A stretch of DNA of 64,000 bases from an uncultured Gemmatimonadales bacterium. GTDB lineage: Bacteria > Gemmatimonadota > Gemmatimonadetes > Gemmatimonadales > Gemmatimonadaceae. The notes under the pieces are model-generated. The model saw nothing but the letters and a program-made list of their open reading frames with translations. It made no database searches and had not been told where the DNA came from. The position numbers were made by a program, and so were the translations under genes. Where the stretch lies: contig CAVSUQ010000011.1 of assembly GCA_963731305.1 (NCBI GenBank), forward strand, positions 11,670 to 75,669, given 5' to 3'. Shown in pieces: positions 2,841-48,333 of this stretch (position 1 is the first letter of the stretch; each line of letters opens with the position of its first letter).

Positions 2841-4062
2841 ATGGCAGATAACCCGACCGGCAACGATTCCGTTGTGGAACCGCACGTCGATGTAACGGCG
2901 ACGGCGTCGCCAGCTGACCGGGACGCGCAGCAGCCGAATCTCTTCAAGACGGCTTCCGCTATTGCGAGTGTGCGAGCTCGCTCGGCGAATCTCACCATTC
3001 TCACGGTGCTCGCGGTTCTGTACACGCTCTACTTCGCACGTGAGTTTCTGCTGCCGATCGTGTTCGCGATACTGCTGAACTTTCTGTTCAGTCCGGTGGT
3101 ACGCGCGCTCGGCAGACTCAAGATTCCACCACCGCTCGCCGCAGGGATCATCATTCTCGCGGTGCTCGGCGTCATCGGGTCGGGGGCGTTCGGGTTGTCG
3201 GGCTCAGTCAGCGATTGGGCGGCCAGGGCTCCGCAAACTCTGGCGACAGCGGAGGCAAGAGTCGGCAAGCTGATACGACCACTGCAGCGTGCGTCGAGAA
3301 CCGCCGAGCAGGTAGCGAATACCGCAGGAGCGGCCGCCGGAGCGGGCGACGGCGCGCGGAGACCAACCGAGGTCGTGGTACGACCGCCAAGTCTCGCCGT
3401 CCGGGCGTTCGGCACGACACAGCGCGCGGTTGCGAGCATACTCGAAGTATTGATTCTTCTCTATTTCCTGCTTGCCGCCGGTGATCTCTTCCTGCAGAAG
3501 CTCATCAAGGTGTTGCCCAATCTCGGCGAAAAAAGAAAGGCGGTTCACATCGCGCGCGAAGCGGAGTCGTCGATATCGACGTATCTCGTTAACGACAGCG
3601 CTGGTGAACATCGTGGAAGGGCTCGTTGTTACCGGTGTGATGTATCTGTGGCGAATGCCCGATCCGCCGCTGTGGGGAGTGCTGGTCGCGGTGTTCGAGT
3701 TCATCCCGTATCTGGGCGCGCTCGCGATGGTCGTCATACTCGGTATCGCTGCGCTCACCACGTTCGACACGGCGGGTTATGCGCTGCTCATTCCGGCGAG
3801 CTATCTCCTCATCAACGTAGTGCAGGCGAATCTCGTAAGTCCGATACTGCTCGGACACCGACTATCGCTCAATCCTGTGGCGCTGTTCGTGGGACTCGCG
3901 TTCTGGTTCTGGATCTGGGGAATTCCAGGCGCGTTCATCGCGGTGCCATTGCTGGCGACGCTCAAGATATTCTGCGATCACATCGAGTCACTCGCATCCG
4001 TTGGCGAGTTCCTGGGCCAGCGCGACGACAGGGAGCGACGTACAGCGGTTCGGGAGGTGTAG
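2841..4062 (+). pseudogene. AI-2E family transporter (PerM/UPF0118-like), one frame change near 3590
   Basis: The N-terminal part (ATG 2841, LTILTVLAVLYTLYFAREFLLPIVFAILLNFLFSPVV) lies in the frame of ORF 2748-4124. The C-terminal part (VFEFIPYLGALAMVVILGIAAL...WGIPGAFIAVPLLATLKIF) lies in ORF 3472-4062. Confidence 0.75.
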
Positions 4063-4249
4063 GCGACGCGGCTTCCGTCGCGAAAGCCGGCTCTAGTAAA
4101 CAGATGTTTCCAGAGACGCGATAATCCGGATTGGGCGTTCCAGGTCAGCTAGTCGCCGCGGAATGCGTACAGAGCGTAGCGATCCGTTTTCGCGCTAGAA
4201 TATCCGCTTGCAGCTGATCCAGCGTCTCCTTCCACGAAGGCCATTCCGC

Positions 4250-7200
4250 ATGTCGATTTCCCGCTTCATGTCTGCCGCAGCCGTAGCAACTACGTGTGCG
4301 GCAACGCTCGCCGGCGTCGCGTCCGTCGCGAGTGCCCAATCCGCAAACCTCTACTCCGAGATGCACTGGCGCGAGATCGGGCCTACGAGGGCCGGCCGAG
4401 CGAGGGCGGCGTCTGGATCGGCGAGCGAGCCGAATGTGTTTTATGTGGGATATGACAACGGCGGCGTCTGGCGATCGACCGATTACGGCTCGAACTGGGT
4501 GCCGCTGTTCGACAACGAGCCAACTGGCTCGATCGGCGCGATAGCGGTCGCGCCATCGAATCCGAACATCATATATGTAGGGACCGGCGCCGGAATCATC
4601 CGGCCCGATCTGTCGGTCGGTGACGGCGTCTACAAGTCGACCGACGGCGGAAAGACCTGGACGCATCTCGGACTCCGCGACACGCAGATGATCGCGAACA
4701 TCGACGTCGATCCCACAAACCCGAATCGACTGTTCGTCGCTGCGCTCGGCCATCCGTATGGTCCGAACGCAGAGCGTGGAATCTTCCGCTCGACCGACGG
4801 AGGCAGGACTTTCGAGAAGGTGCTGTACAAGGACGAGTACGTGAGCGGCAACGACGTGCGCATCGATCCAAAGAATCCGAACATCGTCTACGCCGGACTG
4901 TGGCAGCAGCAGCAGAGCTATCTCGAAGGCGCAGAGTTCGGTGGCGTCGAGGGTGGAATATTCAAGTCGACCGATGGCGGCACGACGTGGAAGCCTCTCA
5001 CCGACGGACTTCCGGCAGGCGTCATAGAAGCAAACCTCGGCATCTCGATGAGTGATCCCAGCATCGTTTACGCGATGGTCGCCGGCTCGGCGGGACCGCG
5101 CGCGCGCGGCACGACGGGAGTCGTCGAGTTCTACAAGTCGAACGATTCGGGCGAGCACTGGCATCTCGCGATCGCCGATCCGTCAGTGCCGGAAGCTTCG
5201 CGTCCAAAGACCGCCGATCCGCGTCCGCTCGTGCGCATCGGCGGCGGTGATCTGCCGACGATCGCAGTCGATCCGAAGAATCCGAATGTCGTCTACAGCT
5301 CGTCCACAGTGATGTGGCGCACCGAGAACGGCGGGCTCACGTGGAGCGCTGTACGCGGCGCGCCCGGCGGTGACGACTATCAGAAGACGTGGATCAATCC
5401 GAGCAATCCCGACATCATCCTACAGGTCGCGGATCAGGGCGCTGTAGTTTCAGCCAATCGCGGTCTGTCGTGGAGCAACTGGTACAATCAGCCGACGGCT
5501 GCGATGTATCACGTGTCGACCGATGACGCATTCCCGTATCGCGTGTGCGGCGGTCAGCAGGACTCAGGCTCGGCGTGCGTCGACAGCAGGTCGATGGATG
5601 GCGAGATAACGTTCCACGACTGGCACCCGGTGAACATTCAGGAATACGGCGTCGCAGCGAGCGATCCGAAGGATCCGGACCTCGTCTTCGCCAGCATGCG
5701 CAACAGCGTTTCGCTGTACAACCGCATCACAGGTCAGACGACCATCGTCGGTCCTGATCCGGAAGCGCGTGGCACCGAGTTCAATCGTAATGTGCGCACG
5801 ATGCCGATCCTGTGGTCGCCTGTTAACCCCAGGATCCTGTTCTACACCTCGAACGCAGTGTGGAAGTCGACGGATCAGGCGCACAGCTGGACGCGCATCA
5901 GTCCCGACCTCGCGCGTCAGACGTGGGCGATTCCAACCACTGTCGGGAAGTACGCAAGCACCGTCACGCCAGCACCGATGGGAAGCATCACGGCGCTCTC
6001 GGCGTCGCCGCGCGACGTGAAAGTAATCTGGGCCGGTACCGACGACGGCAACGTTCAGGTGACGATGGATGGCGGCGCCAAGTGGACGAATGTGACGCCA
6101 GCGCAGATCAAGCCGTGGACGCGCATCTTCAACATCGACGCCGGTCACTTCGACACACAGACCGCGTATGCGGCAGCGAACACCATGCGCATCGACGACC
6201 TCAACCCGCACCTCTGGCGCACGCACGACGGTGGCAAGACGTGGACCGAGATCGACAATGGCATAGCGCCGGGCGCGGTGACGAATTCCATCCGGGAGGA
6301 TCCACGCCAGAAGGGATTGCTCTACGCGTCGACAGACACGCAGGTGTGGGTGTCGTTCGACGATGGCGATCACTGGCAGTCGCTGCGGCTCGACATGCCT
6401 GCAGTATCCGTCCGCGATCTTCAGATAAAGGACGACAGCATCTGCATGTGCTCCGATCTCATCGCGGGCACGCACGGACGCGGATTCTACATTCTCGATG
6501 ACGTGACTCCGCTTCGTCAGGCCGCTGCGGCGCGTAACGCCTCGCCGGCGTATCTGTACAAGCCGGAAACCGCGACGCGCATTCGTCTCGCGACGAACGA
6601 TCCGACGCCGTGGCCGCCCGAGCTGCCAGCCGGCGAGAATCCGCCGAACGGTGCGATAATCGATTACTATCTGTCGTCCGATGTGACAGGTCCGCTGACC
6701 ATCGACATACTCGACGCCGGTGGCAGCGTCGTGCGCACGTATTCGAGCGAGCTCAAGCGTGATCCGGATCCAGGCGTGGATCAGGATGCGTACGACAAGG
6801 TGTGCCAGGAGACGCCGCGCGCGCCGGATTGCGGACTGCCGCTTGTACTGGCCGTCACGCATCCGGTCGATGCCAACGAGCGCTGGCATGCACCGCATAA
6901 GCTGGAACATGCGATACCAGCCGCTCGCACAGGAGCGCACACGAAGTCGATGCTACGGGCGCGGTACCACTGCGGAGCTCGCCGCCGCCGAGCTCGCCGT
7001 GGGCGCCACCGGGACAGTACACCGTGCGGCTGACGGTTGGTGGAAGGAGCTACACGCAGCCACTGACGGTACGTCTGGATCCGCGCGTCAAGACGCCGGC
7101 CGCGGCTCTCGCGCAGAACGCGAAGCTGTCGCTCGAGATGTACCAGCTGGCGCGCACGATGCGGATGACATACGGCCAGGCGCACGATCTCGGCGAGGAG

Positions 7201-20339: not shown

Positions 20340-20355
20340 CACCGCCTTCTGAATC

Positions 20356-20400
20356 ACGCTCGTTGCGATCCGGAGTCCGGATCGCAACGAGCGTATTCTT
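20356..20400 (+). terminator. Rho-independent terminator after the S9 peptidase gene
   Basis: 18-bp perfect stem acgctcgttgcgatccgg (20356-20373) / ccggatcgcaacgagcgt (20377-20394) with a 3-nt loop, followed by the T-rich attcttcatttcc. Confidence 0.8.
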
Positions 20401-20415
20401 CATTTCCGGCGTCCG

Positions 20416-20430
20416 TAGGGGTTTCCCCTA
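20416..20430. promoter_or_regulatory. Palindromic operator candidate TAGGGG-TTT-CCCCTA upstream of the multicopper oxidase gene
   Basis: Perfect 6+3+6 palindrome in the intergenic region about 115 nt upstream of ATG 20546. The same half-sites occur at 38757-38771 upstream of nirK. Confidence 0.45.
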
Positions 20431-20545
20431 GCGACTTTCCAGTTTCTCCCGACTGAATGGATGAGTGATCGCAGGTAGGTTGCGGAAGGTCCTCCACAAC
20501 CCGGGAAAGAATATCGTGAGTAGATCGCCCATCAATTTCGAAACC

Positions 20546-21625
20546 ATGGAAGACGCCGTGAATTCCGTGGTGTCGCGGCGCGAGTCGCGACGTTCGTTCC
20601 TTCGCAACAGCGCAGTCGCTGCGGTAGCCGGAACACTGGTGAGCGCGTGCAAGCCTGCTGCCGCATCCGAGCGATCGGTGAAAGCGGTCACGAAGGCAGC
20701 GCCGGTGGTAGCGACTCCCGTCGCGTTCGGTGCCGAAGACGTCAGTGCTGCGTCAATCGCCGCTGCCGACGCGATGGATAAAATGCACGAGGCCGGGATC
20801 AAGGCATTTCCCGCCAGCACCAGGGGCCGAGGCAATCAACTTCTCGCACCACGTATCGAGCACGGCGTCAAGGTATTCGACCTCACCGCGAAGAGGATGC
20901 AGTGGGAAACGGAGCCGGGCAAGGTTACGGAGGCGTGGGCATACAACGGGATGGTGCCCGGTCCGATGATTCGCGTCCGCGATGGCGAGCGTGTGAGGGT
21001 CAACATAAAGAACGAGCTGCCGGAATCCACGTCGATCCACTTTCACGGCGTGGAGCTCCCGAATGACCAGGATGGAGTGCCGTTCATAACGCAGCCTCCG
21101 ATCAAGCCAGGCCAGAGCTACACCTACGAGTTCGCTCCGCCGAATCACGGCTCGCACATGTATCACTCGCACCACGACTCCACCAAGCAGGTGGGCCTCG
21201 GCCTGCTCGGCGCATTCATCGTCGAGCCCAGGGACAGCTCGGAAGAGCCGCACGCAGACGTCGATCACGTCCTGATTCTGAACGACGGGCTGAACGGCTT
21301 CACCATCAACGGAAAGGGATTTCCGGCGACCGACCCGATCGTCGCGAGGCTCGGGCAGACGGTGCGGATCCGTTTCATGAATGAAGGGATGATGATCCAC
21401 CCGATGCACCTGCATGGCATGCACATGACCGTCATCGCCAAGGACGGATGGGCGCAGCCGCAGCCATGGAGGTGCGACACCCTCAACGTGGCGCCGGGCG
21501 AGCGCTGGGATGTGCTGGTGAAATGCAATAATCCCGGCACCTGGGCATTCCACTGCCATATTCTGCCGCACGCGGAGTCGGAGCAGGGCATGTTCGGCAT
21601 GGTGACCGCGCTGATAGTGAAATAG
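20546..21625 (+). CDS. Tat-exported multicopper oxidase (three-cupredoxin CopA/CueO-like, compact)
   Basis: Tat signal SRRESRRSFLRNSAVAAVAG. Copper motifs HFHGVELPN, HMYHSHHD, HPMHLHGMHM and WAFHCHILPHAESEQGM. The start at 20546 (MEDAV...) is preferred over 20465. Confidence 0.85.
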   Translation: MEDAVNSVVSRRESRRSFLRNSAVAAVAGTLVSACKPAAASERSVKAVTKAAPVVATPVAFGAEDVSAASIAAADAMDKMHEAGIKAFPASTRGRGNQLLAPRIEHGVKVFDLTAKRMQWETEPGKVTEAWAYNGMVPGPMIRVRDGERVRVNIKNELPESTSIHFHGVELPNDQDGVPFITQPPIKPGQSYTYEFAPPNHGSHMYHSHHDSTKQVGLGLLGAFIVEPRDSSEEPHADVDHVLILNDGLNGFTINGKGFPATDPIVARLGQTVRIRFMNEGMMIHPMHLHGMHMTVIAKDGWAQPQPWRCDTLNVAPGERWDVLVKCNNPGTWAFHCHILPHAESEQGMFGMVTALIVK

Positions 21626-21672: not shown

Positions 21673-23169
21673 ATGACCAACGAGAGCCACGACAGTGCAG
21701 ACGGTGATACTAGGACCACACCGCCCGAGTGGCTGTCGCGGCCGCCGTCGGCCGGCATGTACGAAAAGATTCTGGAGGCCGCGGCAGATGCGATCGTCAC
21801 GATCAACGAGGCACAGGAAATAGTGCACTTCAATCGCGGTGCAGAGCAGATCTTTGGATATCGCAAGGACGAGGTGCTGGGCCGCAACCTGGACAAGCTG
21901 CTGCCGGCGCAGTTCCGCGCGAACCATGCTGCATACGTCGTTGCATTTGGCGAGTCCGCCGACTCCGCGAGATTGATGGGTCACAGGCGTGAAGTATTCG
22001 GACTCAGGAAGAATGGAACGGAGTTTCCGGCGGAGGCTTCCATCCTCAAGCTGGACGCACCGGATGGACGCCGGCTTTATACCGCACTCGTGCGCGATGT
22101 GACCGACCGGAAGCGGATGGAGGGACATCAGCGATTTCTGGCGGAGGTCGGCATCGCACTAAGTGACTCGCTCGATTACGATGCGACGATCGCGTCCGTG
22201 GCGCGGCTGCCGGTGCCGACGCTTGCCGATGCGTGCATCATCGAGGTGATCGACGAGGTGGGCGAGATTCATCGGGCGACATATGGTAGCGCGGAACTGC
22301 TGAACGGAGCTGTATCTGCCGATGTGGCAACGCAGGAGCTGACACTCACGGCCCGCGGACAACCAGTGGGCGTGTTGACGTTGCTACGAGCCGATTCGTC
22401 GCGCGGCAATGATCAGGGTGATTCGATCATCGCAGCCAATTTTGCAACGCGTGCGGCGCTCGCGGTGGACAACGCACGATTGTATCACGAGGCCCAACGC
22501 GCAACCGCCGCGAGAGACGAGATACTGGGAGTCGTATCGCACGACCTCAGGAATCCGTTGAGCGCGATCGCGATGTGTTCACGTGTACTGGTCGATACAC
22601 CGCCGGCCGACGCGGCCGCGCGGCGCGAGCTGGCAAGGACGATCCACGAATCGACGACGTGGATGTCACGCATGATTCAGGATCTGCTCGACGTCTCGGC
22701 GATCGACGCAGGTGTACTCTCCATTGTCCGTGACAGTGCGGATATCGGCCAGATCGTGATGCGATCTGCTGGCCTTTTCACACGGACGGCGGCGGAACGC
22801 GGTGTGGCCATTGTTGTGACGGTGGACGAATCGCTGCCGCGAGCGTCTGTAGATGCAGAGCGAATAGTGCAGGCGATCGCGAATCTCATCGGCAACGCGG
22901 TGAAGTTCACTCCGGCCGGCGGAAGTGTCACGGTCAAGGCTCGCTCACACGGGGAAGTGATAGAGATTGCCGTTGAGGATACGGGACGGGGGATCCCCGA
23001 CGCGGACGTCCCATTCATTTTCGATCGATTCTGGCATACACGCGGTGCAGCCGCCGGGACAGGGTTGGGGCTGGCGATTGTGAAGGGGATCGTCGAGGCT
23101 CACGGGGGCACGGTTGCAGTCGGCAGCAGGGTTGGAGAGGGCAGCCGCTTCACTATCAGCTTGCCGTGA
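21673..23169 (+). CDS. PAS-domain sensor histidine kinase (cytoplasmic, orphan)
   Basis: PAS region (IVTINEAQEIVHFNRGAEQIFGYRKDEVLGRNL), H-box VSHDLRNPLSAI, and N/G boxes IGNAVKFTP, EDTGRGIP, GTGLGLAIVKGIVEAHGG. Confidence 0.85.
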   Translation: MTNESHDSADGDTRTTPPEWLSRPPSAGMYEKILEAAADAIVTINEAQEIVHFNRGAEQIFGYRKDEVLGRNLDKLLPAQFRANHAAYVVAFGESADSARLMGHRREVFGLRKNGTEFPAEASILKLDAPDGRRLYTALVRDVTDRKRMEGHQRFLAEVGIALSDSLDYDATIASVARLPVPTLADACIIEVIDEVGEIHRATYGSAELLNGAVSADVATQELTLTARGQPVGVLTLLRADSSRGNDQGDSIIAANFATRAALAVDNARLYHEAQRATAARDEILGVVSHDLRNPLSAIAMCSRVLVDTPPADAAARRELARTIHESTTWMSRMIQDLLDVSAIDAGVLSIVRDSADIGQIVMRSAGLFTRTAAERGVAIVVTVDESLPRASVDAERIVQAIANLIGNAVKFTPAGGSVTVKARSHGEVIEIAVEDTGRGIPDADVPFIFDRFWHTRGAAAGTGLGLAIVKGIVEAHGGTVAVGSRVGEGSRFTISLP

Positions 23170-24316: not shown

Positions 24317-24808
24317 CTAGAACCGCTCGCCCTTTGCCTCACGCGCCTGGCTCCCCACCGGCCGAATTCTCATCCACATCGTGAAGAAGAAGACACCGAT
24401 CGCGATCGCCTGAAGAAAACCGGCGCCGACTATCGAGATACGGAGCCATAGTGCCGAGATGTTCATGTCGAACAGGGTCGATCGCATTATTTCACCGCCG
24501 ACCCGCGCAGCGGTCCCGATCGTTATCACCCAGTACGCGGTCGCGACGAGTCGTGGGCTATATTGTGCGTCGGACTTTTCGGGGCGGGGGAAGAGCCACA
24601 GTGCAACGCCCATGATCATCATCATCACGAAGCCGACGAACAGCGCGTGCGTATGAGCACTCACGAGATATTCGTCCGGTGCTGCCCCCCACAATTCCCG
24701 ACGCGCTATCAGGTATCCACCTATAGCCAGGCCAACGGTGATAAAGGCGAGCGCGGTCTTGAGATAACGACGGACGAGCGTGTACACGGTCGCGCTACTC
24801 AGCCGCAC
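24317..24808 (-). CDS. Small 4-TM membrane protein carrying an NnrS-like His motif
   Basis: 163 aa. SAHTHALFVGFVMMMIMGVALWLFP fits H-x4-G-[WF]-x6-G-x4-L-[LF]-P, also seen twice in the larger membrane protein at 26107-27514. Last gene of the mrp operon. Confidence 0.55.
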   Translation of the reverse strand: MRLSSATVYTLVRRYLKTALAFITVGLAIGGYLIARRELWGAAPDEYLVSAHTHALFVGFVMMMIMGVALWLFPRPEKSDAQYSPRLVATAYWVITIGTAARVGGEIMRSTLFDMNISALWLRISIVGAGFLQAIAIGVFFFTMWMRIRPVGSQAREAKGERF

Positions 24809-24844
24809 TCACGCAGCTGCACTCACGCAGCTGCACTCGTGCGG
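24805..24844. repeat. 14-nt tandem repeat (gcactcacgcagct x2 plus a degenerate third copy)
   Basis: Copies at 24805-24818 and 24819-24832, with a partial copy at 24833-24844. It spans the GTG start of the small membrane gene. Confidence 0.7.
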
Positions 24845-24913
24845 CCACCAAGCTAAAGCCAGCCACCATAAAAGCCGGTGGAGTAAGTCAGCAGGAGCAC
24901 GTCGTGCCTGTGA

Positions 24914-25171
24914 TCACTTCCGGTCAATCTGCACGCGCCATACTTCCGGCCCCTGTGCCTGGTATGTCCACTCGAATGTCCCAGGGTGTTCGGCGTCGAG
25001 CTGATATCGCAATGGGCGCGGATCGTGATCGTTGATGAGAATCATCGACTGACCCTTCTCGAGACCATCGAACGTACGAAAGATGGTGGGATGCTTGTCC
25101 CTCGGCGGAATGATGCGAACGTCCAGCTCGACCGGAACGTTGCCGGACTGTGCTGCGGTTGACTGCGACAT
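24914..25171 (-). CDS. DUF2249 domain-containing protein
   Basis: 85 aa. ELDVRIIPPRDKHPTIFRTFDGLEKGQSMILINDHDPRPLRYQL is the characteristic DUF2249 signature as I recall it. Confidence 0.75.
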   Translation of the reverse strand: MSQSTAAQSGNVPVELDVRIIPPRDKHPTIFRTFDGLEKGQSMILINDHDPRPLRYQLDAEHPGTFEWTYQAQGPEVWRVQIDRK

Positions 25172-29989: not shown

Positions 29990-30594
29990 GTGGCAGTCTG
30001 CCTGTGGCTCACCGCGCACGGTACGAGCTGCCTTGAAGCCGTGGCGGTGGTGTTCGGAATAGTCAGCGTCTACCTCAGCACGCGCGAGAACATCTGGAGC
30101 TGGCCGACGGCTCTCATCAACGTTTCGCTCTTCACAGCACTCTTCCTCGAATCGGGTCTTTATTCGGATACGGGGTTGCAGGTCGTTTACTTCGTGCTTT
30201 CGGTGTACGGCTGGTACGAGTGGCTCTATGGAGGGGCAGGTCACACTTCGATAACCGTCTCCTCCACCACACGAAAAACGTGGATCGTGCTCGGCTGCAT
30301 CGGCGTCATCGCGTGGCTGATCCTCGCGACTGTCAGCTCGCACCTGCCGGGAACGAAGCTCCCCTATCTCGAGCCGCAACGACGACTATAAGCCTGCTCG
30401 CCCAGTGGATGATGACCCGCAAGCTGCTCGAGAACTGGATCGTGTGGATCGCGGTGGATGTCGTTTACGTCGGGATGTTCATCTAAAAAGGTCTGTATCT
30501 CACAGCGTTCAACTACGGCATCTACCTTGCTCTCGCGGTGCTCGGGTATATCGCATGGAAAAAGTCGCTCGCAGCGGCAACCTCATTCGCGTAG
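29990..30594 (+). pseudogene. pnuC: Nicotinamide riboside transporter PnuC, two frame changes (about 30370 and 30485)
   Basis: EAVAVVFGIVSVYLSTRENIWSWPTALINVSLFTALFLESGLYSDTGLQVVYFVLSVYGWYEW (ORF 29810-30391). Then TTTISLLAQWMMTRKLLENWIVWIAVDVVYVGMFI (ORF 30220-30486). Then KGLYLTAFNYGIYLALAVLGYIAWKKS, read by hand in the third frame. The start is uncertain (GTG 29990 or ATG 29967 with an extra shift). Confidence 0.7.
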
Positions 30595-31083
30595 TTCTCA
30601 CCGGCTCCGAATCGACCGGCAAGAGCGTGCTCGCGCGGCGGCTCGCCGAGCACTTCAGGGCCGAGCTTGCTCCGGAATTCGTGCGCGACTTCGCGATGCG
30701 CAAGGGAGCGCCGATCGAGTTCGAGGATACGGACGAGATCGCGCGCGGACAGATAGAGCTCGAAGATGAACACGCAGGACGTGCGGAGCTTGCTGATCCA
30801 GGACACCGATCTACTCAGCACAGTCGTGTACAGCGGCCACTATTACGGCCGCTGCCCCGAATGGATCGAGCGTGGCCCGCGCGCGCGACGGCCGGATCTC
30901 TATCTGCTGCTCGAGATCGACGTGCCCTGGGTTCCGGACGACGTGCGTGATCGTGAGAATCGGCGTGACGAGATGCAGCAGCTGTTCAGGACGGCGGTCG
31001 CGGAATCCGGAGCGCGGTACATCGTGATACGCGGATCGTGGAATGAACGCTTTGAGCGCGCGCGCCAGGCGATCGACAGCTGA
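30555..31083 (+). pseudogene. NadR-type ribosylnicotinamide kinase-like P-loop ATPase (AAA_28), one frame change near 30770
   Basis: IRVVLTGSESTGKSVLARRLAEHFRAELAPEFVRDF lies in ORF 30405-30950. It continues as LLIQDTDLLSTVVYSGHYYGRCPEWIE...DLYLLLEIDVPWVPDDVRD in ORF 30766-31083. Confidence 0.65.
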
Positions 31084-33385: not shown

Positions 33386-35269
<1,884 letters not shown>

Positions 35270-35372
35270 GCGTCCGTCCCATTTGCGAAATGGGCAGAGC
35301 TCGAAGCGGCGGTCCACACGCTGTTTCGACAGTGCCTGTGAGACAGTTTAGAGTGCCGGGCGATCGGCCGAA

Positions 35373-35388
35373 GTGACTCATGTCACGT
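35373..35388. promoter_or_regulatory. CRP/FNR-type box candidate AGTGA-N6-TCACG upstream of ctaD
   Basis: agtgactcatgtcacg lies about 105-120 nt upstream of the ctaD start (35269). It is next to or overlapping the 3' end of the Crp/Fnr gene. Confidence 0.25.
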
Positions 35389-35399
35389 TTCGCAAGTGA

Positions 35400-36209
35400 T
35401 TATCTTCCCTGTGCGCGCGATCGAAGCTTTGCGACATCTGGGATCCGCATGCGCCCATGCTGAAATAGATTCCAGCAACTCGCTGCGCTTGAGCTGTCGC
35501 ATCGCGCGCGAAACTGACTCTCTGGCGCTCCCGATCTCGAGCGACAACTCCTCCTGTGTACGATCCAACCTGAGCTCGATCCCAAACGGAGTATTGATGC
35601 CGGATTGCTCGGCGTACCCGACAAGCAACATCGCGAGCCGCGCGGCGACATCGTGAAAGGCGAGCGTTTCAGTGACGTGCACAAGATGACGAAGACGCTT
35701 GCCGAGCACGCGAATTATCGCGTGCGCAACGTCGGGATGCGCACGATACACTACCTCGAAATCATCGCGCGCAAGAAAGATGAATCGCGAAGGCTCGACG
35801 GCACCGCGGACGCGGGATATACGCCACCGTCGAACAGCGGAAGCTCAGCGATCGGGCGTCCAGCACCCTCGATGTGAAGCACCTGCTCCTTGCCATCAGG
35901 ACTCGTGCGATAGATGCGAACACTTCCAGGGATTGGATCACATAGAGTCCGCGACATGTATCGCCAAGCAGAAAACAGCACGCTTCCGGTGCCGAAATCA
36001 CGTGCAACACAGCGGCATGCGAGTGGATGAATGACACCATCGTCCAGCTCGGAGAAGATCGCTATCTGTCGAAGCAATTCGCCGACCTCTGCGGAGAGTT
36101 TATCAGCGAACTCCGCGGTATCATGGAGAACCGATTCTGAGGGGTGACTAAGAGGGGACGTCACCGCGGGAAACTGTCGAGAATGCTGTCCGAACGGTGT
36201 CACGTGCAT
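35400..36209 (-). pseudogene. Crp/Fnr-family transcriptional regulator, at least 4 frame changes
   Basis: cNMP-binding pieces: IAIFSELDDGVIHPLACRCVARDFGTGSVLF, LLGDTCRGLYVIQS, GSVRIYRTSPDGKEQVLHIEGAGRPIAELPLFDGGVYPASA. HTH piece: RLDRTQEELSLEIGSARESVSRAMRQLKRSELLE. Tail: GRMRIPDVAKLRSRA. These occur in ORFs 35751-36269, 35762-36040, 35383-35751 and 35400-35684. Confidence 0.75.
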
Positions 36210-36234
36210 CGCTGGATGCGACGATGATCGATTG

Positions 36235-36898
36235 CTAATCGAACAGCCGCGAGTGCTCGATGCAACCATCGCCGACGCATGGAAGCGGCGAGACCGACAC
36301 TATTCTGCGGTTACGAATCTTCGCCATGCTGATGGGCGTACGTAAGCGGCTACCGTTGGCAAGCATCATCGTCGGAGTTCCACGAACGCGATATTGTTCG
36401 CGGCCAATCCTGGCTTCGTCGACAACAGCAGCGCGCGCAGCGGCACTTGCGAAGTCGCGCTCGAATCGGGCGAAGTCGACGTCAGTGGTACGAGCCAGCT
36501 CCAGCAACACGTCGCTGTCACCGATGTTGCGGCTCTCCCCAAAGAACGCGCGCCGTATTGCCAGATCGAGATTCATTGCGGCATTCATTCCCTGCTGCCG
36601 TGCTGCCCATACCGCTTCGAACGCCGGAAGCGTGGACATCGACCAGTTAGCGTATATGGAATGAACGACGCGGATAACTCATTAATGGAAGCGAGCCACC
36701 ATTCCTGCTCCAGGACATCACGTGGGGCGCCTCTCCATTGAAAAGCTCCAGCGGGAAGAAGCGCGTGTACGCCAGCACGCGACCGGCGTATTTAGACAGA
36801 ACGCGGTGCATGCGGGAAGCCATGACATAACACCAGGGACAGTAGTATTCAGCCCATTCCCACAATTCCGCGACCGATGGACCACTCATTGTTCGCAA
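36235..36898 (-). pseudogene. DsbA-family (FrnE/HCCA isomerase-like) thioredoxin-fold oxidoreductase, about 2 frame changes
   Basis: The N-terminus with the CxxC motif (WAEYYCPWCYVMASRMHRVL) is in ORF 36647-36898. The C-terminal part (AVWAARQQGMNAAMNLDLAIRRAFFGESRNIGDSDVLLELA...YRVRGTPTMML) is in ORF 36235-36639. Confidence 0.7.
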
Positions 36899-37017: not shown

Positions 37018-37322
37018 TGACACCAATTGAGCTGACATCTGGAATGCGCTTCGTACGGTGATCGATCCGGAAATTGGCCTCGATATAGTGACGTTGGGGC
37101 TAGTATATGATGTCGTTCGTTTGACGGCGATTCACGAGCTAATGGGCAAGATTGTGCGTGTCACACACACGCTAACGACGCCAGGATGTCCTATGGAGCG
37201 CGTGATAACATCTGGTATTCGAGCAGCAGTGGGCTCGTGTTCCGGGCGTTGCAGCGGTCGGAGACGAACCTGGTGTGGGATCCTATATGGCATTCGGGGA
37301 TGATTACACCAGGAGCATGGTG
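37018..37322 (+). pseudogene. DUF59 (SufT/PaaD-like Fe-S assembly) protein, two frame changes
   Basis: ATG 37018 (MTPIEL..), then [27 protein letters not shown]...[11 protein letters not shown] in ORF 37058-37303. The tail [21 protein letters not shown]-stop was read by hand in a third frame. Confidence 0.65.
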
Positions 37323-37565
37323 AAGCTGGTTATCGAACTTAGTTTCTCGAGGCTGACAGCACTTCACGCAGTCGAGCGTCTTGCCCAGAAACATCGCGCG
37401 GCCGGTTTCCGTGATCACCCATGGACGCACCTGCCATGGTGGGTCGTGGCGAACGTGCTGCGTGTGACCGCACTCGAGGTCCGCGACCCAGTGCTGCTCT
37501 TCATCCTGATGGAAGCCGACGATCCTCCTGGGAATCGCCGACCCCGCGCTTGCATCTCGCTGCAT
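37191..37565 (-). CDS. DUF3565 domain-containing protein, immediately downstream of nirK
   Basis: [53 protein letters not shown] matches the DUF3565 signature as I recall it. The long C-terminal tail overlaps the convergent DUF59 gene, so the 3' end is uncertain. Confidence 0.6.
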
Positions 37566-37584: not shown

Positions 37585-38604
37585 TTAGTGTGACATCGTT
37601 GGAAACTGCCTGGGTGTTCCGACCTGAATCATCCCCACCGCACCCTTCTCCGCATCGGCAAAGGAATGAGTGACGAATGGATAGAGGCCCTCGCCGCTCG
37701 CGTCCTTGTTGAAGACGGCCTCGAACACCACACCACCGCCTGCCGGTACCGGATAGGTCTGCACGCCTTCGAGTGCGTGCTCCGGGTTGCCGTCCGGGTA
37801 AACGCGGTCGAACATGGCGCCGACGATGTGAAAATCGCTGTCGAAATTCGGGCCTGCGTTGACGACGTAGAAGCGCACGCGATCCCCCACTGCAACCTTG
37901 AGCGGGTGCTCCTTGTACTGTCCGGCGCGCCCGTTGAAAACGACGTAGCTGGCGTTCTTGGCCTGCTCGGACGGCCAATCTGCCTGAACCATGGTGCTGT
38001 CGGAAGTCGGCTTGGTGTAGAACTCACTCTGCACGATTACAAATTCCTTGTCCGCCTTGGTGCCCCATCCGCCTCTCGGATCGACGATGATCGGAAGATA
38101 CATTCCCTGCATTATGTGCATGGTAACCGGCGGAGTGCCGCAGTGAACCATGAATGCGCCCGGCTCGCGGGCGATGAACTCGAAAGCTACGGAATCCTTT
38201 GGCATGATCATGCGATACGCCACATTCGCCGGAATCTGAGCTGCATGAAAGTCAATCGAATGCGGCATATCAGCCTCGTTCACCACGTTGATGCGAACGT
38301 GATCACCCTCTCGCACGTGTATCACTGGACCGGGAACGGTTCCGCCAAAGGTCCATCCCTGGTACTTGACTCCGTCTGCGATCTCGATCGTAGCATTCTT
38401 GATCGGGATGCGAAACTCCTTGACGCCAGCGTCTGACATCTCGGGGAGTGTTGCGTCGTAGGCCGGGCTTGTCGACGTAATGACCTTGCCGAAATCGATG
38501 CGTGATACTTTATGTGAGCGAATCGCGTTGTCGGTGAAGCCCAGTACCGCAGCCGTGAGTACACCGGTAATCGCGAGTCCCGTCAGAATTTGAGTGCGTT
38601 TCAT
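37585..38604 (-). CDS. nirK: Copper-containing nitrite reductase NirK (two-cupredoxin-domain), intact
   Basis: 339 aa with an N-terminal hydrophobic signal/anchor. Copper-ligand regions MPHSIDFHAAQ and FMVHCGTPPVTMHIMQGM, and domain II FHIVGAMFDRVY...VPAGGG...FVTHSF. Confidence 0.85.
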   Translation of the reverse strand: MKRTQILTGLAITGVLTAAVLGFTDNAIRSHKVSRIDFGKVITSTSPAYDATLPEMSDAGVKEFRIPIKNATIEIADGVKYQGWTFGGTVPGPVIHVREGDHVRINVVNEADMPHSIDFHAAQIPANVAYRMIMPKDSVAFEFIAREPGAFMVHCGTPPVTMHIMQGMYLPIIVDPRGGWGTKADKEFVIVQSEFYTKPTSDSTMVQADWPSEQAKNASYVVFNGRAGQYKEHPLKVAVGDRVRFYVVNAGPNFDSDFHIVGAMFDRVYPDGNPEHALEGVQTYPVPAGGGVVFEAVFNKDASGEGLYPFVTHSFADAEKGAVGMIQVGTPRQFPTMSH

Positions 38605-38754
38605 TGTTCTCTCCAGAATGTGCGAGCGATGAATTCGTGTGTGGTTTCATCTGTCTCGCGTGTTACATCTGGAACGTAGATCTCCCGGGGCGTCCGGTCT
38701 GTCGGGGTAACGTTGAAATTTGTATTCCTCGGAAGGGGAAATCACCGTCTCCCC

Positions 38755-38773
38755 GGTAGGGGAATCCCCTACC
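38755..38773. promoter_or_regulatory. Palindromic operator candidate GGTAGGGG-AAT-CCCCTACC between nirK and the divergent sensor kinase gene
   Basis: Perfect 19-bp palindrome whose core TAGGGG-N3-CCCCTA is identical to the site at 20416-20430. It lies about 150-170 nt upstream of the nirK start. Confidence 0.45.
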
Positions 38774-38829
38774 ACGTTCACGGGCCCTCCCCGACTCTCC
38801 GGAGCCCGCGTCACAGGTACCTTTGATCC

Positions 38830-40092
38830 ATGAGCGCGCGTAGGGACCACGAAAGTAGGAAGGGATGCCAGATCCGGGTCTGGCAGTCTGGGGCCACAGG
38901 CGCTGTTGACCAGGCTCGAGCGCGGCATGCCGGTGAAACAACGTGTATCCACCCGTCGCGACGACGCCATCCCGCCCTCGTCTATGAAGCCGGCGCGGCA
39001 GACAGGGTCGATACGCGCGTGCCGGTGTGGGTCGAGCAACTCTTGAGGACGCCGCTCCCACTGAAGCTTGTCGGAGCAAATGTTCTGCTACTGGTGGCCG
39101 CGGCAGCTACCGCGCTCATCATGCGCCAGTGGGAGCTGAGCACCGCTCCTGTTCTGGCCGTCGTGATAGTCGCCTTTGTTGCAGCGCTCCTGATCAACAC
39201 GGGACTGGTGATGCTGGCGGTGCGTCCGATCCACGTACTCGAGAACACGGTGAACACGATCTGGCGCGGCGACCTTGGTGCCCGTGTGCCCGTATCACTT
39301 CTGGCGGATCGGCACGTCGCGCGCGTCGCGCGCATGTTCAACATTCTGCTCGACGGACTCGTTGCCGATCGCGCGCGAACGCGGCGGCTTGCAACGGAGT
39401 TGATCGGAGCCGCCGACAGGGAGCGCGCGGCCATCGCTCGTGAGCTGCACGACTCTGCAGCCCAATCCCTTGCCGCGCTCGTGATGCAACTGGGCGTCGC
39501 GTCGCGAGCGGACGACGATACACCACGTGAAGCGCTACAGGAGAGAATCGAGGCCGCACGGTTGCTCGCAACGTCCACGCTGGAGGAGGTGCGATTGCTG
39601 GCGCACACAATGCATCCACGTGTGCTCGACGATCTCGGTCTGGTCGCCGCACTCCGGCGACTCGCGCGCGAAACCACCAACCATCTCGCTGGCTCAACAG
39701 TATCCAGCGACAACGAAGTGCTCGTCGAGGTTATTGCAACCGAAGGCAGCGACGAGACCATCCCAGCGGTTCCGGCGTCGGTGTTGTATCGTGTCGCACA
39801 GGAGGCGGTAAGCAACGCGCGCCGCCATGCGTCAGCGACACGTATCGAGATCCGGCTTCAGGTTACTGCCGGCATCGCGATGTTGGAGGTGGTCGACGAT
39901 GGTTCGGGCTTCGACGCCAGGACAGCACCCGACGCGCAAGCGGGTATCGGCCTCTTCACCATGCGCGAGCGAGTGGCGTTGGTCGACGGCGAGTTTCAGA
40001 TCCGTAGTGAGGCAGGTGTTGGAACGTCGGTTACGGCTTCTGTTCCGCTGCGCGCAATACCATCCAACCCTCGAGACGGACAACGCATATGA
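38830..40092 (+). CDS. Membrane sensor histidine kinase, HAMP + HisKA_3 (NarX/DegS-type)
   Basis: TM segments, a HAMP-like region, H-box ERAAIARELHDSAAQSL, and ATPase boxes EAVSNARRHA, DDGSGFD, GIGLFTMRERVALVDG. The start codon is uncertain (the ORF start at 38830 may be too far upstream). Confidence 0.8.
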   Translation: MSARRDHESRKGCQIRVWQSGATGAVDQARARHAGETTCIHPSRRRHPALVYEAGAADRVDTRVPVWVEQLLRTPLPLKLVGANVLLLVAAAATALIMRQWELSTAPVLAVVIVAFVAALLINTGLVMLAVRPIHVLENTVNTIWRGDLGARVPVSLLADRHVARVARMFNILLDGLVADRARTRRLATELIGAADRERAAIARELHDSAAQSLAALVMQLGVASRADDDTPREALQERIEAARLLATSTLEEVRLLAHTMHPRVLDDLGLVAALRRLARETTNHLAGSTVSSDNEVLVEVIATEGSDETIPAVPASVLYRVAQEAVSNARRHASATRIEIRLQVTAGIAMLEVVDDGSGFDARTAPDAQAGIGLFTMRERVALVDGEFQIRSEAGVGTSVTASVPLRAIPSNPRDGQRI

Positions 40093-40760
40093 CGGCAGAG
40101 CAGATTCGTGTGGTTCTCGCTGACGACCATGCGGTCGTGCGTGCCGGCCTCAAGGCTGTCCTCGGCGCTTCTGCCGGTATAGAAGTAGTCGGCGAAGCAT
40201 CCGACGGCGCCGCGGCGATCGAGCTTGCGGAGCGACTGGATCCCGATGTTGTGATAATGGACCTGTCGATGGCGCAGATGGACGGTACGGCCGCAACGCG
40301 CGCGATCGTGGCGAAGCATCTACGCGCGCGCGTGCTCGTGCTCACGATGCACGCGGAAGAAGATTATCTTCTCCCGGTACTGGAAGCCGGTGCTGCGGGA
40401 TATCTCATGAAGAACGCAGCCGATCGCGAGCTGGTGGACGCCGTGCGAACGGTGGCGCGTGGTGACATGTACATCCGATCGAGCGCGGCAAAAATTCTGA
40501 CTCAGAGAGTAACGAAGAAAGATCCACTCGACGCAGAGCGTGCACGTTTCGAGCGGCTGACCGATCGAGAGCAGAACGTTCTCAGACTTACCGCCCAGGG
40601 TTACTCGGCGCCGGAGATCGGCGAGCGATTGTTCATCAGCCCCAAGACGGTCGACACCTACAAGCAGCGCATCGGCGACAAGCTGGGACTGACACATCGG
40701 GCGGAGTACATAGCGTTCGCTTTGAAGCTTGGTTTACTTCAGGAAGAGAAGGGCAAGTAG
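40089..40760 (+). CDS. NarL/LuxR-family response regulator
   Basis: REC domain (VVLADDHAVVRAGLKAVL...DVVIMDLSMAQMDG) plus LuxR HTH (LTDREQNVLRLTAQGYSAPEIGERLFISPKTVDTYKQRI). 4-nt overlap with the kinase stop. Confidence 0.9.
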   Translation: MTAEQIRVVLADDHAVVRAGLKAVLGASAGIEVVGEASDGAAAIELAERLDPDVVIMDLSMAQMDGTAATRAIVAKHLRARVLVLTMHAEEDYLLPVLEAGAAGYLMKNAADRELVDAVRTVARGDMYIRSSAAKILTQRVTKKDPLDAERARFERLTDREQNVLRLTAQGYSAPEIGERLFISPKTVDTYKQRIGDKLGLTHRAEYIAFALKLGLLQEEKGK

Positions 40761-45312: not shown

Positions 45313-45473
45313 AACTCCCTCCGGAACGAAAATGTTCGTGCAGGGGCGAACGTGACCCTCACATTCGGAAGGTACGATTTCCGGAGACCCAGCGACAGAC
45401 GTTGCTCGCCCGTAATTTTAGGGCACTCCCCGAACAACTTCGTGTACTCAGACGACCCACACCAACCCCGAAC

Positions 45474-46409
45474 ATGATAGTTCATGCCCTTCTGCAGGCG
45501 GCCGAAGATCAGATCACTGCATCCGATCTTGTTCTTGAATACGCCGGATTTCTCGCGTACTTCGGCGTATTCGGTGCTCTGGGGTTCCGCTGGCTCGTCC
45601 TGGCGCGCACGGCTACCGGTGGACCGGCCGCGTCGCGGGACGACGCCGTTGCCAGAGCTCTCCAGCCGGCTGACACTGGCGCGGCCGTAGTCGGCCTCAT
45701 CGGCACGCTCTTCATGCTCATAAATCTGCTGATGAGCATATCGGCTCGGGCAGCAGGAAAGGGAATTTCATTCGGAGCGGCAATCTCCGCGGGTGGAAGC
45801 AGAATAACGGTGCCGTTCGTGTTCATCGCACTGTTTTTCATCACGTTCGCCATAGCTCTCAAGCGCGTACGCACGGCGTGGATCGTCGCAGGTCTCGTGG
45901 GCCTCGCGTACGCGTTGCAGAACATCACGTCCGGCAAGTGGACGTCGCTGGTGAATCCGGTGCACGAGACAGCTGCATCACTCTGGCTTGGCACGTTGCT
46001 CGTGGTCGTTGCCGTCGGTCTGCCGGCGATTCTGCGAAGCACACTGCCTACCGAGCGGCGTGGGCTGGTCGTGGCGGACATGATCAACAGATTCTCGCCA
46101 GTTGCGATCTGCGCATCACTGTTGCTTGTCGTCACCGGCGTGACTACAGCGTGGCGTCATCTAAAGTTCGTGGCGGCGCTGTGGACGACTTCGTACGGTT
46201 ACGCGCTGGACCTCAAGCTCGTATTCGTCGCGATCGTCGCGGCACTCGGTGCGTGGAACTGGCGACGCATGAGACCGCGACTGGGGACGGAAGCAGCCGC
46301 GCACGAAATACATCGCAGTGCGAAGGGCGAGCTGTTTTTCGCCGCGATCGTGCTCCTGATCACTGGCGTGCTCGTGAGTCTTCCTGGGCCGCGCCTGCCA
46401 CACCCGTAG
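45474..46409 (+). CDS. CopD-family copper-resistance membrane protein
   Basis: Eight predicted TM segments. HETAASLWLGTLLVVVAVGLP and C-terminal AAIVLLITGVLVSLP are typical of the CopD domain. ATG 45474 is preferred over the TTG at 45402. Confidence 0.6.
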   Translation: MIVHALLQAAEDQITASDLVLEYAGFLAYFGVFGALGFRWLVLARTATGGPAASRDDAVARALQPADTGAAVVGLIGTLFMLINLLMSISARAAGKGISFGAAISAGGSRITVPFVFIALFFITFAIALKRVRTAWIVAGLVGLAYALQNITSGKWTSLVNPVHETAASLWLGTLLVVVAVGLPAILRSTLPTERRGLVVADMINRFSPVAICASLLLVVTGVTTAWRHLKFVAALWTTSYGYALDLKLVFVAIVAALGAWNWRRMRPRLGTEAAAHEIHRSAKGELFFAAIVLLITGVLVSLPGPRLPHP

Positions 46410-47815: not shown

Positions 47816-48208
47816 TCAGCGCTCGTCAGTCGCGGCGGAAGTCGTGGCGGAAGTTGTAGCGGAACTCGCGGTGGCTGCGGCGGTCGCCGGCGTAGTTGCC
47901 TCGACCCATTCACTCGCCCAGTTGCCGATCGCGATGATGGCAGCTTCGAGCGCCCGTCCCTTGGGCGTGAGCTCGTATTCGATGCGCACCGGCGTCGTTG
48001 GAAACACGTGTCTCTCGAGAACGCCTTCCGCTTCGAGCTCGCGGAGCCGTTCGGCGAGCATGCGATCGCTGATATCGGGGACGGATTCCCTTATCTCGTG
48101 GTACCGGGCCTTGCCGGCGAGCATGGCGCTGATGATCGCGCCGGTCCATCGCCGTCCGATAAGCTCGACCGCCTTATGATACTTGGGGCAAATCGATTCC
48201 TGGCTCAT
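47816..48208 (-). CDS. HxlR-family winged-helix transcriptional regulator
   Basis: CPKYHKAVELIGRRWTGAIISAMLAGKARYHEIRESVPDISDRMLAERLRELEAEGVLERHVFPTTPVRIEYELTPKG. Thr/Ala/Ser-rich C-terminal tail. Confidence 0.9.
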   Translation of the reverse strand: MSQESICPKYHKAVELIGRRWTGAIISAMLAGKARYHEIRESVPDISDRMLAERLRELEAEGVLERHVFPTTPVRIEYELTPKGRALEAAIIAIGNWASEWVEATTPATAAATASSATTSATTSAATDER

Positions 48209-48242
48209 ATCATGTAAGTAAGCATTGGATAGGGCATTGACA

Positions 48243-48270
48243 ATAGTTACTTATCTAAATATAGTTACTT
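48243..48270. promoter_or_regulatory. Direct repeat ATAGTTACTT (x2, 18-nt phase) in the AT-rich HxlR/YceI divergent intergenic region; operator candidate
   Basis: atagttactt occurs at 48243-48252 and 48261-48270. The inverted partner aagtaa occurs at about 48216. Confidence 0.3.
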
Positions 48271-48333
48271 GCAGAAAGTTATCAATATGAGTTGAAGCTT
48301 TCCTCAACCTAAAAGGCATAGCCGGAGACGAAG

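Follow-up and report, generated by a model that had tools for sequence, protein, structure and literature searches.

Which regulator, and which signal, would tie together two copper enzymes whose genes share a short palindrome in front of them? The question is raised by a 64-kb stretch of DNA from an uncultured Gemmatimonadales bacterium (contig CAVSUQ010000011.1; 'the window' below means this whole stretch), in which TAGGGG-N3-CCCCTA stands upstream of a gene for a multicopper oxidase (MCO) and upstream of nirK, the gene for a copper nitrite reductase. An earlier interpretation made from the letters alone (the sequence-only reading) had proposed that the two copies form a shared operator responding to copper, or to nitrite or nitric oxide (NO). 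The palindrome is a conserved cis-element and not a chance occurrence, and the two sites are probably operators of one regulon, bound by the NarL/FixJ-type regulator encoded at 40089-40760. The outcome is a new regulon, with its operator, for a regulator of a known family, the binding itself being a prediction.

A palindrome conserved upstream of nirK and of the multicopper oxidase gene

Exactly two such palindromes had been claimed for the window, and two exact matches to TAGGGGNNNCCCCTA were indeed found where shuffling gives an expectation of 0 (0 of 100 dinucleotide-preserving shuffles contained a match). The 15-bp core of site 1, TAGGGGTTTCCCCTA, lies at 20416-20430 and has TTT at its centre; that of site 2, TAGGGGAATCCCCTA, lies at 38757-38771 and has AAT. 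As operator copies (neither with an assigned strand), site 1 reads GTAGGGGTTTCCCCTAG (20415-20431; 5' of the MCO operon) and site 2 is, in agreement with the extension described earlier, a perfect 19-bp palindrome, GGTAGGGGAATCCCCTACC (38755-38773), common to the divergent promoters of nirK and of a kinase-regulator operon. When scored with a position weight matrix (PWM) built from orthologous sites, site 2 reached 26.9 and site 1 reached 21.5; the next match in the window had 13.0 and the maximum of 50 shuffles was 17.3. Allowing up to two mismatches added a single match in the window (45419), which is within chance expectation. It falls inside the 5' end of a gene for a CopD-like copper-resistance membrane protein (45402-46409) and has a PWM score of 9.9, below shuffle noise; the PWM scan of the window gave no significant site for this gene.

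Both copies are intergenic, as had been stated. Site 1 is downstream of the terminator hairpin of a peptidase S9 gene and upstream of the genes for the MCO and a PAS-HisKA kinase; its end is separated by 115 nt from the MCO start codon if this is the ATG at 20546 (the distance given earlier), or by 85 nt if it is the alternative GTG at 20516. The hairpin, a strong one with an 18-bp stem (20356-20394), is followed by ATTCTTCATTT and stands 17 nt past the peptidase S9 stop codon; it is likely an intrinsic terminator that shields the MCO promoter against transcription coming from upstream. Site 2 precedes two divergent genes, at a distance of 152 nt from the nirK ATG (38604, minus strand) but of only 58 nt from the ATG of the histidine kinase gene (38830), so that the 150-170 nt of the sequence-only reading is right for nirK and wrong for the kinase gene.

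Footprinting of orthologous nirK and MCO promoters, a check named in that reading, showed that the site is kept upstream of both genes. For nirK, 80 Gemmatimonadaceae loci from GTDB species representatives were used (NirK identity 62-89%; 500 kb scanned; individual loci and contigs are cited by L numbers). The exact 15-mer occurs in 0 of these 80 loci of relatives; what is found there at the orthologous position is a degenerate copy, for example TAGGGGTTTTCCTTA, TACGGGAATCCCTTA or TAGGGCAATCCCTTA. At up to two mismatches, 30 of 32 matches were inside the 350 nt upstream of nirK, a region that amounts to 5.5% of the scanned DNA. A symmetrised matrix of 60 sites gave G-TAGGGG-AWT-CCCCTA-C, with conserved positions symmetric about the centre, and the full motif is a 17-bp palindrome, GTAGGGGAWTCCCCTAC (GTAGGGG-AWT-CCCCTAC). 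Since the flanking G/C (0.77) and the central A-W-T (0.70) are informative although they are outside the pattern used for selection, they provide independent evidence for a real 17-bp motif. With a PWM score of at least 13 as the threshold, 58 of the 80 loci had a site, located between -78 and -248 with a median of -144, and control windows of equal size taken from within nirK had none (0 of 80). These loci had also served to train the PWM, whereas the 30 of 32 matches above are independent of training.

In most of the remaining nirK loci a weaker dyad, GTCrG...CyGAC, occupies the same place. The orthologous position of site 2 is conserved in L001-L009, L082, L084 and L124, and the nirK promoters of cultivable Gemmatimonas species carry the same site (L054, L075). 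Close relatives possess one or two extra copies between the distal site and the promoter core on the nirK side. The half-sites degenerate independently of each other (e.g. TAGGGGTTTTCCTTA and TACGGGAATCCCTGA), no compensatory changes being seen, and the position of the palindrome is fixed relative to promoter boxes on both strands.

Six loci with MCO orthologues were retrieved (L081-L086), and the palindrome is kept in all five promoters of stand-alone MCO genes (L081, L082, L083, L085 and L086). The gene upstream of these MCOs varies (AI-2E transporter, peptidase S9, metallo-beta-lactamase or Na/Ca exchanger) and the sequence farther upstream is unrelated, but some 70 nt are conserved as a block: TG-TAGGGnTTTCCCCTA-gcGAyTTTCCAGyTTnCCCCGACTGA-N19-TAsGTT. 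Footprinting therefore strongly supports the idea of a shared operator before both copper-enzyme genes.

The genes behind the two window sites are also linked to each other in other genomes. A PAS-HisKA kinase gene follows directly after the MCO gene in L081-L083, L085 and L086. None follows it in L084, where nirK and the MCO gene (4198-6342) form one operon behind the palindrome with a 19-nt gap, divergent from the kinase-regulator pair. The MCO and PAS-HisKA kinase genes lie 5 kb from nirK and the kinase-regulator pair in L082, an operon with the order kinase-regulator-PAS-HisKA kinase is found in L045 and L046, and metagenome contig L095 has, in this order, a PAS-HisKA kinase gene, a perfect site, an MCO gene and a regulator gene (68% identity). 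Because such linkages between nirK, the MCO and the kinases recur across loci, both window sites are parts of a single functional unit, repeatedly rearranged in evolution but kept together. An orthologous locus without nirK (L205, 4485-6883) has the gene for a DUF3565 protein directly behind the palindrome. A further operon, encoding YceI, a 470-aa porin-like protein and a DUF3108 protein, has a palindrome upstream in L082 (12707-15728), L085 (8924-12008), L123 (1882-4065) and L166 (4228-6407); it is probably another member of the regulon, and no such operon with a site was found in the window.

The promoter core beside the palindrome

The pattern CCGACW-N21-TANNTT occurs three times in the window where 0.08 occurrences are expected, and these are exactly the promoters of the MCO, nirK and kinase genes; the longer CCCGACWGA is found in the window in the MCO and nirK promoters only. 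The boxes of this core are conserved, and mostly invariant, in the alignments of MCO promoters (A2) and nirK promoters (A3). On the plus strand of the MCO promoter, a TTTCCAG box (20436-20442) corresponds to invariant columns in A2. It is similar to TTTCCCC, the palindrome's right half, and a role as a secondary half-site is possible; at this place nirK promoters have AATTTCmAs. The CCCGACTGA box (20448-20456, plus strand), invariant in A2 and A3, begins 17 nt after the palindrome and is about 5 bp upstream of the place expected for a -35 hexamer. It is followed after 19 nt by TAGGTT (20476-20481, plus strand), a -10-like hexamer of the form TAnnTT, of which TA.GTT is invariant in A2.

The nirK promoter has its box, CCCCGACAGA (38698-38707, minus strand), about 50 nt from the palindrome, and GCCCGACAGA is invariant in the 10 aligned nirK promoters of A3; its -10-like hexamer is TACGTT (38673-38678, minus strand), with CTA..TTCC invariant in A3. 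In the promoter of the kinase-regulator operon, the geometry is that of the MCO promoter: CCCCGACTC (38789-38797, plus strand) stands 17-18 nt after the palindrome, and the -10-like hexamer TACCTT (38818-38823, plus strand) ends 6 nt before the ATG at 38830. Both elements of this promoter are visible in A3 on the opposite strand, the box as AGTCGGGG(A/G)G (9 of 10 sequences have T, L004 has A) and the -10-like region as conserved AAG(C/G)TA(C/T).

If these hexamers are used, MCO transcription would start near 20488, with the centre of the operator at about -65, and nirK transcription near 38666, giving a 5' untranslated region of about 62 nt and an operator centre at about -98; for the kinase promoter the operator centre would be at about -66. 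The kinase mRNA is suggested to be leaderless or nearly so, because its -10-like box is 6 nt from the ATG. In distant loci GTCGGGGAATCCCCGAC forms a full palindrome whose right half-site is CCCCGAC, and for this reason we read the CCCCGAC of the promoter core as a lone promoter-proximal half-site. A promoter scan detected no canonical sigma-70 promoter at either site, and there is no recognisable -35 hexamer; inspection of the conserved block by eye for sigma-54 and extracytoplasmic function (ECF) consensus sequences revealed nothing that is conserved across orthologues. This layout of the core suggests activator-dependent promoters.

The candidate binder, its signal and competing explanations

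The proposed binder is a response regulator of the NarL/FixJ family (40089-40760, plus strand) with a receiver domain and a GerE helix-turn-helix domain (Pfam). Its matches in the PDB are VraR (2e-40), NarL (3e-31) and DevR (9e-29), and the Asp, Thr and Lys residues of the receiver are present, so that the receiver is intact. Its NCBIfam scores are all below the cut-offs, including the second-best match (UvrY/GacA, 1e-47), and its orthologues are called NreC in the automatic annotation of the Joint Genome Institute (JGI). The gene directly before it, which is divergent from nirK, codes for a membrane histidine kinase of the HisKA_3 (NarX/LiaS) class (38830-40092, plus strand; Pfam HisKA_3 and HATPase_c) with two transmembrane segments and a very short loop; here too, all NCBIfam similarities are below cut-offs.

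With the window counted, at least 11 loci encode a NarL-type regulator and its kinase near nirK, and the pair is divergent from nirK in L001-L005, L007, L008, L082, L084, L124 and L205. The kinase-regulator operon carries a site of its own, which in the window is site 2, 58 nt from the kinase ATG. This site is kept even where the operon is apart from nirK: upstream of the kinase gene in L001, of the regulator gene in L056 and of a PAS-kinase-regulator operon in L114 and L178. A search of JGI metagenomes with the perfect 17-mer alone returned at least 120 contigs (62 high-GC and 58 low-GC, many of the latter phage-like and with several copies); among the matches listed, to which all contig counts below refer, a NarL-type regulator is encoded in 16 of the 62 high-GC contigs versus 0 of the 58 low-GC contigs, these being counts made without a formal background model. 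The site is within about 200 nt of a two-component operon in nine contigs. In L100, L108, L112, L138, L144, L149 and L194 it lies at most 200 nt past the stop codon of the regulator gene and before the next gene, in L114 and L178 it has a gene for a tandem universal stress protein (USP) on one side and the PAS-HisKA_3 kinase-regulator operon on the other, and in L123 and L166 it precedes the YceI-porin operon, 3 kb from the genes for a regulator (60% identity) and a PAS kinase. Regulators linked to the motif share the recognition helix S(P/V)KT(V/I)(D/E)(T/S)(Y/H)(K/R), of which the window version is ISPKTVDTYKQRI, and two regulators encoded more than 5 kb from a motif lack this pattern. MarR genes are present in 0 of the 62 high-GC contigs, and Crp genes in two orthologous loci and one other contig. 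Two contigs from outside the Gemmatimonadaceae (L112, 1724-1765; L149, 9129-9170) have a degenerate second copy, TAGGAAATTCCCTGA, 8 nt after the perfect 17-mer; this pair of sites comes right after the kinase-regulator operon and is convergent with rho.

As to the signal, the gene after the MCO gene encodes a soluble PAS-HisKA histidine kinase (21673-23169, plus strand; Pfam) with a PAS domain of the FixL/DosP haem type: residues 28-151 match the haem-PAS domains of DosP and FixL in the PDB (E values of about 1e-14 to 1e-15), and the His in ...RANHAAYV... presumably aligns with the haem histidine of FixL. Genes found beside perfect sites encode tandem USPs, the small subunit of a NiFe-hydrogenase, YceI and DUF5069 proteins, a set that is typical of hypoxia or redox regulons. 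The haem-PAS kinase after the MCO, these neighbouring genes and nirK itself together point to oxygen limitation and/or NO or nitrite as the signal rather than copper.

We propose the following mechanism. With low oxygen and/or NO or nitrite as the trigger, the regulator would receive its phosphate from the HisKA_3 kinase in the membrane (38830-40092), from the FixL-like haem-PAS kinase that is co-transcribed with the MCO (21673-23169), or from both. Once phosphorylated, it would bind the operators as a dimer, each target promoter being composed of the palindrome, a lone half-site CCCCGAC(A/T) a short way upstream of -35 and TAnnTT 21 nt further on. In this way the regulator would switch on the nirK-DUF3565 and MCO-kinase operons, its own operon (a positive feedback) and, in relatives, the YceI-porin-DUF3108 operon; judged from the position of the sites, the presumed mode of action is activation rather than repression. 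A wider version of the proposal is possible but doubtful: GTAGGGGAWTCCCCTAC would be the box of a distinct, undescribed NarL/FixJ subfamily with the recognition helix given above. In Gemmatimonadota, and in a minimum of one or two further high-GC phyla, this subfamily would run a hypoxia/NO regulon like that of DosR, with two kinases feeding the regulator and phages perhaps using or mimicking it. If this is true, the regulon of the subfamily would include nirK and the genes for two-domain MCOs, USPs, YceI-porin and hydrogenase, and the haem kinase, as a regulon member that feeds the regulator, would create a feed-forward loop.

Several points weigh against the assignment of the palindrome to the NarL/FixJ-type regulator. 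The assignment is drawn from adjacency and from analogy; the PWM was trained on the loci that it scored, the contigs found with the 17-mer are an arbitrary sample of the metagenome matches, and the -10 hexamers and start sites are deduced from conserved boxes only, the sigma-70 scan being empty. The odd central spacer of the 15/17-bp site is unlike the even-spaced NarL 7-2-7 and GacA boxes, and NarL 7-2-7 boxes are absent from the intergenic regions of the two sites. The 3 kb fetched lack the kinase-regulator pair for about 70 of the 80 nirK loci, so that the regulator must in many cases be supplied by a gene at another location. Finally, nirK also has genes for other regulators nearby: clustering places a MarR gene there in 16 loci and tblastn in 30, and a Crp/Fnr gene is found in 7-9 loci, the window being one of them.

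These other regulators suggest a different reading, which we consider rather unlikely: the palindrome would be a real operator of the same regulon, with Crp/Fnr (35383-36269), MarR or a LysR- or Rrf2-type factor encoded elsewhere as its binder. A Crp/Fnr gene belongs to the nirK cluster in L001-L006, L124, L205 and the window (two genes downstream, split) and is divergent from nirK in L032 and L077, and in an unrelated contig (L168) a Crp-like gene is 150 nt from a perfect site. The MarR gene stands directly after nirK, the loci found by clustering being L010, L011, L017, L020-L023, L030, L031, L036, L037, L041, L048, L049, L057 and L065; an odd-spaced 15/17-bp dyad near -65 also fits LysR-type recognition sites. 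However, no FNR box (TTGAT-N4-ATCAA) or CRP box (TGTGA-N6-TCACA) was detected at up to three mismatches in 20340-20546, and 38605-38830 contains no FNR box at this threshold and a single CRP-like match with three mismatches, which is not conserved. The absence of MarR from the high-GC contigs is to be set against the 16 of these with a NarL-type regulator, Pfam scans revealed no MarR, LysR or Rrf2 gene near either window site, and the motif persists where Crp and MarR are absent.

The view that a CsoR/RcnR-type or other copper-sensing repressor ties both enzymes to the copper supply, which the sequence-only reading had put forward, we regard as very improbable. Copper is required by both downstream enzymes, the window contains the CopD-like gene, and G-tract/C-tract dyads flanked by TA loosely recall CsoR/RcnR boxes. 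CsoR boxes, however, have the C-tract first (TACCC...GGGTA) whereas the half-sites here have the G-tract first, and the CopD-like gene is without a significant site. As that reading had already noted, the window appears to have no CsoR-like gene: among about 60 open reading frames, Pfam scans found no CsoR/RcnR (PF02583), CopY, CueR or ArsR-type gene, and tblastn with a CsoR query gave only noise. Moreover, the site is about 65-100 bp upstream of the putative promoter cores and not over them, and the neighbours of the motif are genes for NarL-type regulators, PAS kinases, USPs, YceI-porin, hydrogenase and MCO/nirK, not the efflux and chaperone genes copA, copZ or cusCBA. Slightly less probable still is that the palindrome is a nucleic-acid structure or a selfish repeat, i.e. 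a terminator or attenuator hairpin, a cruciform, or an element like the repetitive extragenic palindromic (REP) sequences or miniature inverted-repeat transposable elements (MITEs). It can form a G+C-rich hairpin of 6-8 bp with a 3-nt loop, it comes just after the stop codon of a gene in several foreign contigs, and the same 17-mer is multi-copy in phage-like low-GC contigs. Yet no T-run follows the palindrome in the window or the 17-mer in foreign contigs, and the terminator scan, which places an intrinsic terminator at 20356-20394, separate from and upstream of site 1, found none in 38590-38850. A dispersed REP/MITE-like repeat is at odds with two copies in 64 kb, both at linked promoters and with conserved orthologous positions, and the conservation follows the logic of a DNA dyad at positions fixed relative to promoter boxes. 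What fits the evidence best is the NarL-type regulator adjacent to nirK together with a nitrite/NO signal, which had been fallback ideas in the sequence-only reading.

Neighbouring genes, phage-like copies and comparison with known systems

The MCO gene (20516-21625, plus strand; start at GTG 20516 or ATG 20546) codes for a two-domain enzyme (Pfam Cu-oxidase_3/_2) with a twin-arginine signal in which the RRxF motif is visible. Its GTG start is the one called in a public collection (P0121, identical protein; the regulator has a public record as well, P0242), and its closest solved structures are the two-domain MCOs 6vox, 2zwn and 3g5w. The nirK gene (37585-38604, minus strand) encodes a 339-aa copper nitrite reductase (Pfam; NCBIfam TIGR02376, 8.5e-56, below the curated cut-off) whose homologues, from Gemmatimonadaceae, are named nitrite reductase (NO-forming). 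It is directly followed by a gene for a DUF3565 protein (37191-37565, minus strand; Pfam DUF3565, 1.3e-30), an assignment that synteny also supports. Homologues of NirK, the MCO and the regulator all come from metagenome-assembled genomes of Gemmatimonadaceae; the contig index has no record of the exact NirK protein, and the window is a section of a contig of 434,499 bp. Recurrent neighbours of nirK elsewhere, apart from those mentioned above, are genes for a small COX1-like membrane protein (17 loci), a plastocyanin/azurin-type cupredoxin (9) and a tandem USP (9). The window, too, encodes a small membrane protein of this type, of 163 aa and with a match to COX1 that is confined to the first 147 positions, beside a DUF2249 gene (24317-25171). 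The two genes come some 1 kb after the MCO-kinase operon and on the other strand; the small protein recalls the nirK neighbours, and the PWM scan gave no operator here.

Many genes of the window are split, at 33386-36898 and elsewhere (3472-4062, 30220-31083). Examples are Crp/Fnr (cNMP domain, 35751-36269; HTH_Crp_2, 35383-35751), a DsbA-like gene (36647-36898 and 36235-36639) and a COX1-family gene in at least four pieces (33386-35317), as well as fragments of AI-2E transporter, NMN-transporter and AAA_28 genes. The split genes are intact in relatives, and the window assembly is probably rich in indels rather than in real pseudogenes; the palindromes themselves agree with many independent assemblies. 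Other features are an HxlR-type regulator gene divergent from a YceI gene (47816-48906), a gene for an 1852-aa RHS-repeat protein (52331-57889) and type II secretion E/G/F genes (59529-62753).

An unrelated set of sequences does show the pattern of a repeat. Low-GC (0.42-0.46) phage-like contigs (L087, L136, L161, L094 and L157) and viral contigs from IMG/VR (L208, L209 and L211), one of which is 170 kb long, contain, in 4-7 copies, an intergenic module of some 90 nt, ..ATAGGGGAATCCCCTAgccggggacgccgcGTAGGGGAATCCCCTACtcccccttagggggaggcggcgcTTGACTT.., in which the same 17-mer is joined by another, nearly identical copy, by a third palindrome and by TTGACT, a -35-like sequence. The phages in GenBank gave no match to the module. 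It has the appearance of a phage promoter/operator unit in repeated copies, and large uncultivated phages may plug into, or mimic, this class of regulator.

Gemmatimonadaceae are among the most abundant soil bacteria and widely carry nirK, and they contribute in this way to fluxes of NO and N2O. In the literature searched, control of denitrification is described for Proteobacteria (FixLJ-FixK-NnrR, NsrR, RegSR) and Firmicutes (NreABC), and no paper on nirK regulation in Gemmatimonadota was found. The operator, the promoter core and the candidate two-component system would provide a sequence rule by which the regulon can be predicted from metagenome-assembled genomes. They would also provide the hypothesis that nirK and the two-domain MCO work together under the control of oxygen or NO, not copper, and simple probes for tests in cultivable Gemmatimonas species.

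Among known systems, CsoR/RcnR operators resemble the palindrome in being short G-/C-tract dyads with TA before copper-related genes, but here the position is activator-like, the regulon is not one of copper homeostasis and a CsoR-family gene is missing. The palindrome likewise departs from the features by which FNR/CRP-family (NnrR/Dnr) boxes of denitrification promoters, with their dyad near -41.5, intrinsic terminators and REP/MITE repeats, as well as CsoR/RcnR operators, are recognized. BvgA promoters combine a strong distal dyad with weaker promoter-proximal half-sites, as seen here, and BvgA, EvgA and GacA have virulence genes or small RNAs as targets. The likeness to their sites resides in inverted half-sites of about 7 bp, variants here reading GTAAGGGATTCCCTTAC. 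BvgA binds inverted TTTCCTA heptads (TTTCCTA/TAGGAAA) (PMC4314077) and UvrY/GacA binds TGTAAG-N6-CTTACA (PMC3171408). Our sites differ in their odd centre, their G4/C4-rich half-site, their respiratory and redox targets and a regulator that is not orthologous.

With FixL-FixJ and DosS/T-DosR (DevR) the proposed system shares the combination of a FixL/DosP-type haem-PAS kinase and a GerE-type regulator, DevR being a structural relative (9e-29); here, however, the gene for the haem-PAS kinase is part of a target operon, and beside the regulator gene stands that of another kinase, a membrane protein. The DosR regulon includes USPs and respiratory enzymes, as do the genes beside the motif; the DosR box, TTSGGGACTWWAGTCCCSAA, and the targets of FixJ differ from the palindrome. 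The pairing of nirK with an MCO has a parallel in ncgABC-nirK, a cluster which is controlled by NsrR (Rrf2 family) and quorum sensing and includes two cytochromes c. The likeness extends to the protein, the window MCO being related to solved two-domain MCOs including 3g5w, and to the single operon of L084; the difference is that the partner gene here is a sensor kinase and that control appears to run via a two-component system. In Nitrosomonas and Nitrobacter the multicopper oxidase NcgA is genetically coupled and co-regulated with nirK (PMC5080386, PMC3603346).

The closest analogy appears to be NreBC of Staphylococcus carnosus and S. aureus, in which a NarL-family regulator and a HisKA_3 kinase activate genes for nitrite reduction via a GC-rich palindrome. 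The NreC box is probably the even-spaced TAGGG-N4-CCCTA, of which the half-sites are almost those of our palindrome but the spacer is one base shorter than in the TAGGG-N5-CCCTA found here. The differences are that the kinase on the nirK side is a membrane protein without a PAS or Fe-S domain, that the targets are a periplasmic copper NirK and an MCO rather than cytoplasmic NirBD/NarGHJI, and that the phylum is another one. NreC binds its GC-rich palindrome at the promoters of nitrate and nitrite reductase genes and of narT in Staphylococcus (PMC8139620, PMC5694512). With the operators of NarL/FixJ-type regulators in general, the palindrome has in common a symmetric dyad of 14-20 bp with half-sites of roughly 6-7 bp, a candidate cognate regulator encoded with a HisKA_3 kinase nearby, recurrent adjacency to it and a copy before the regulator's own operon.

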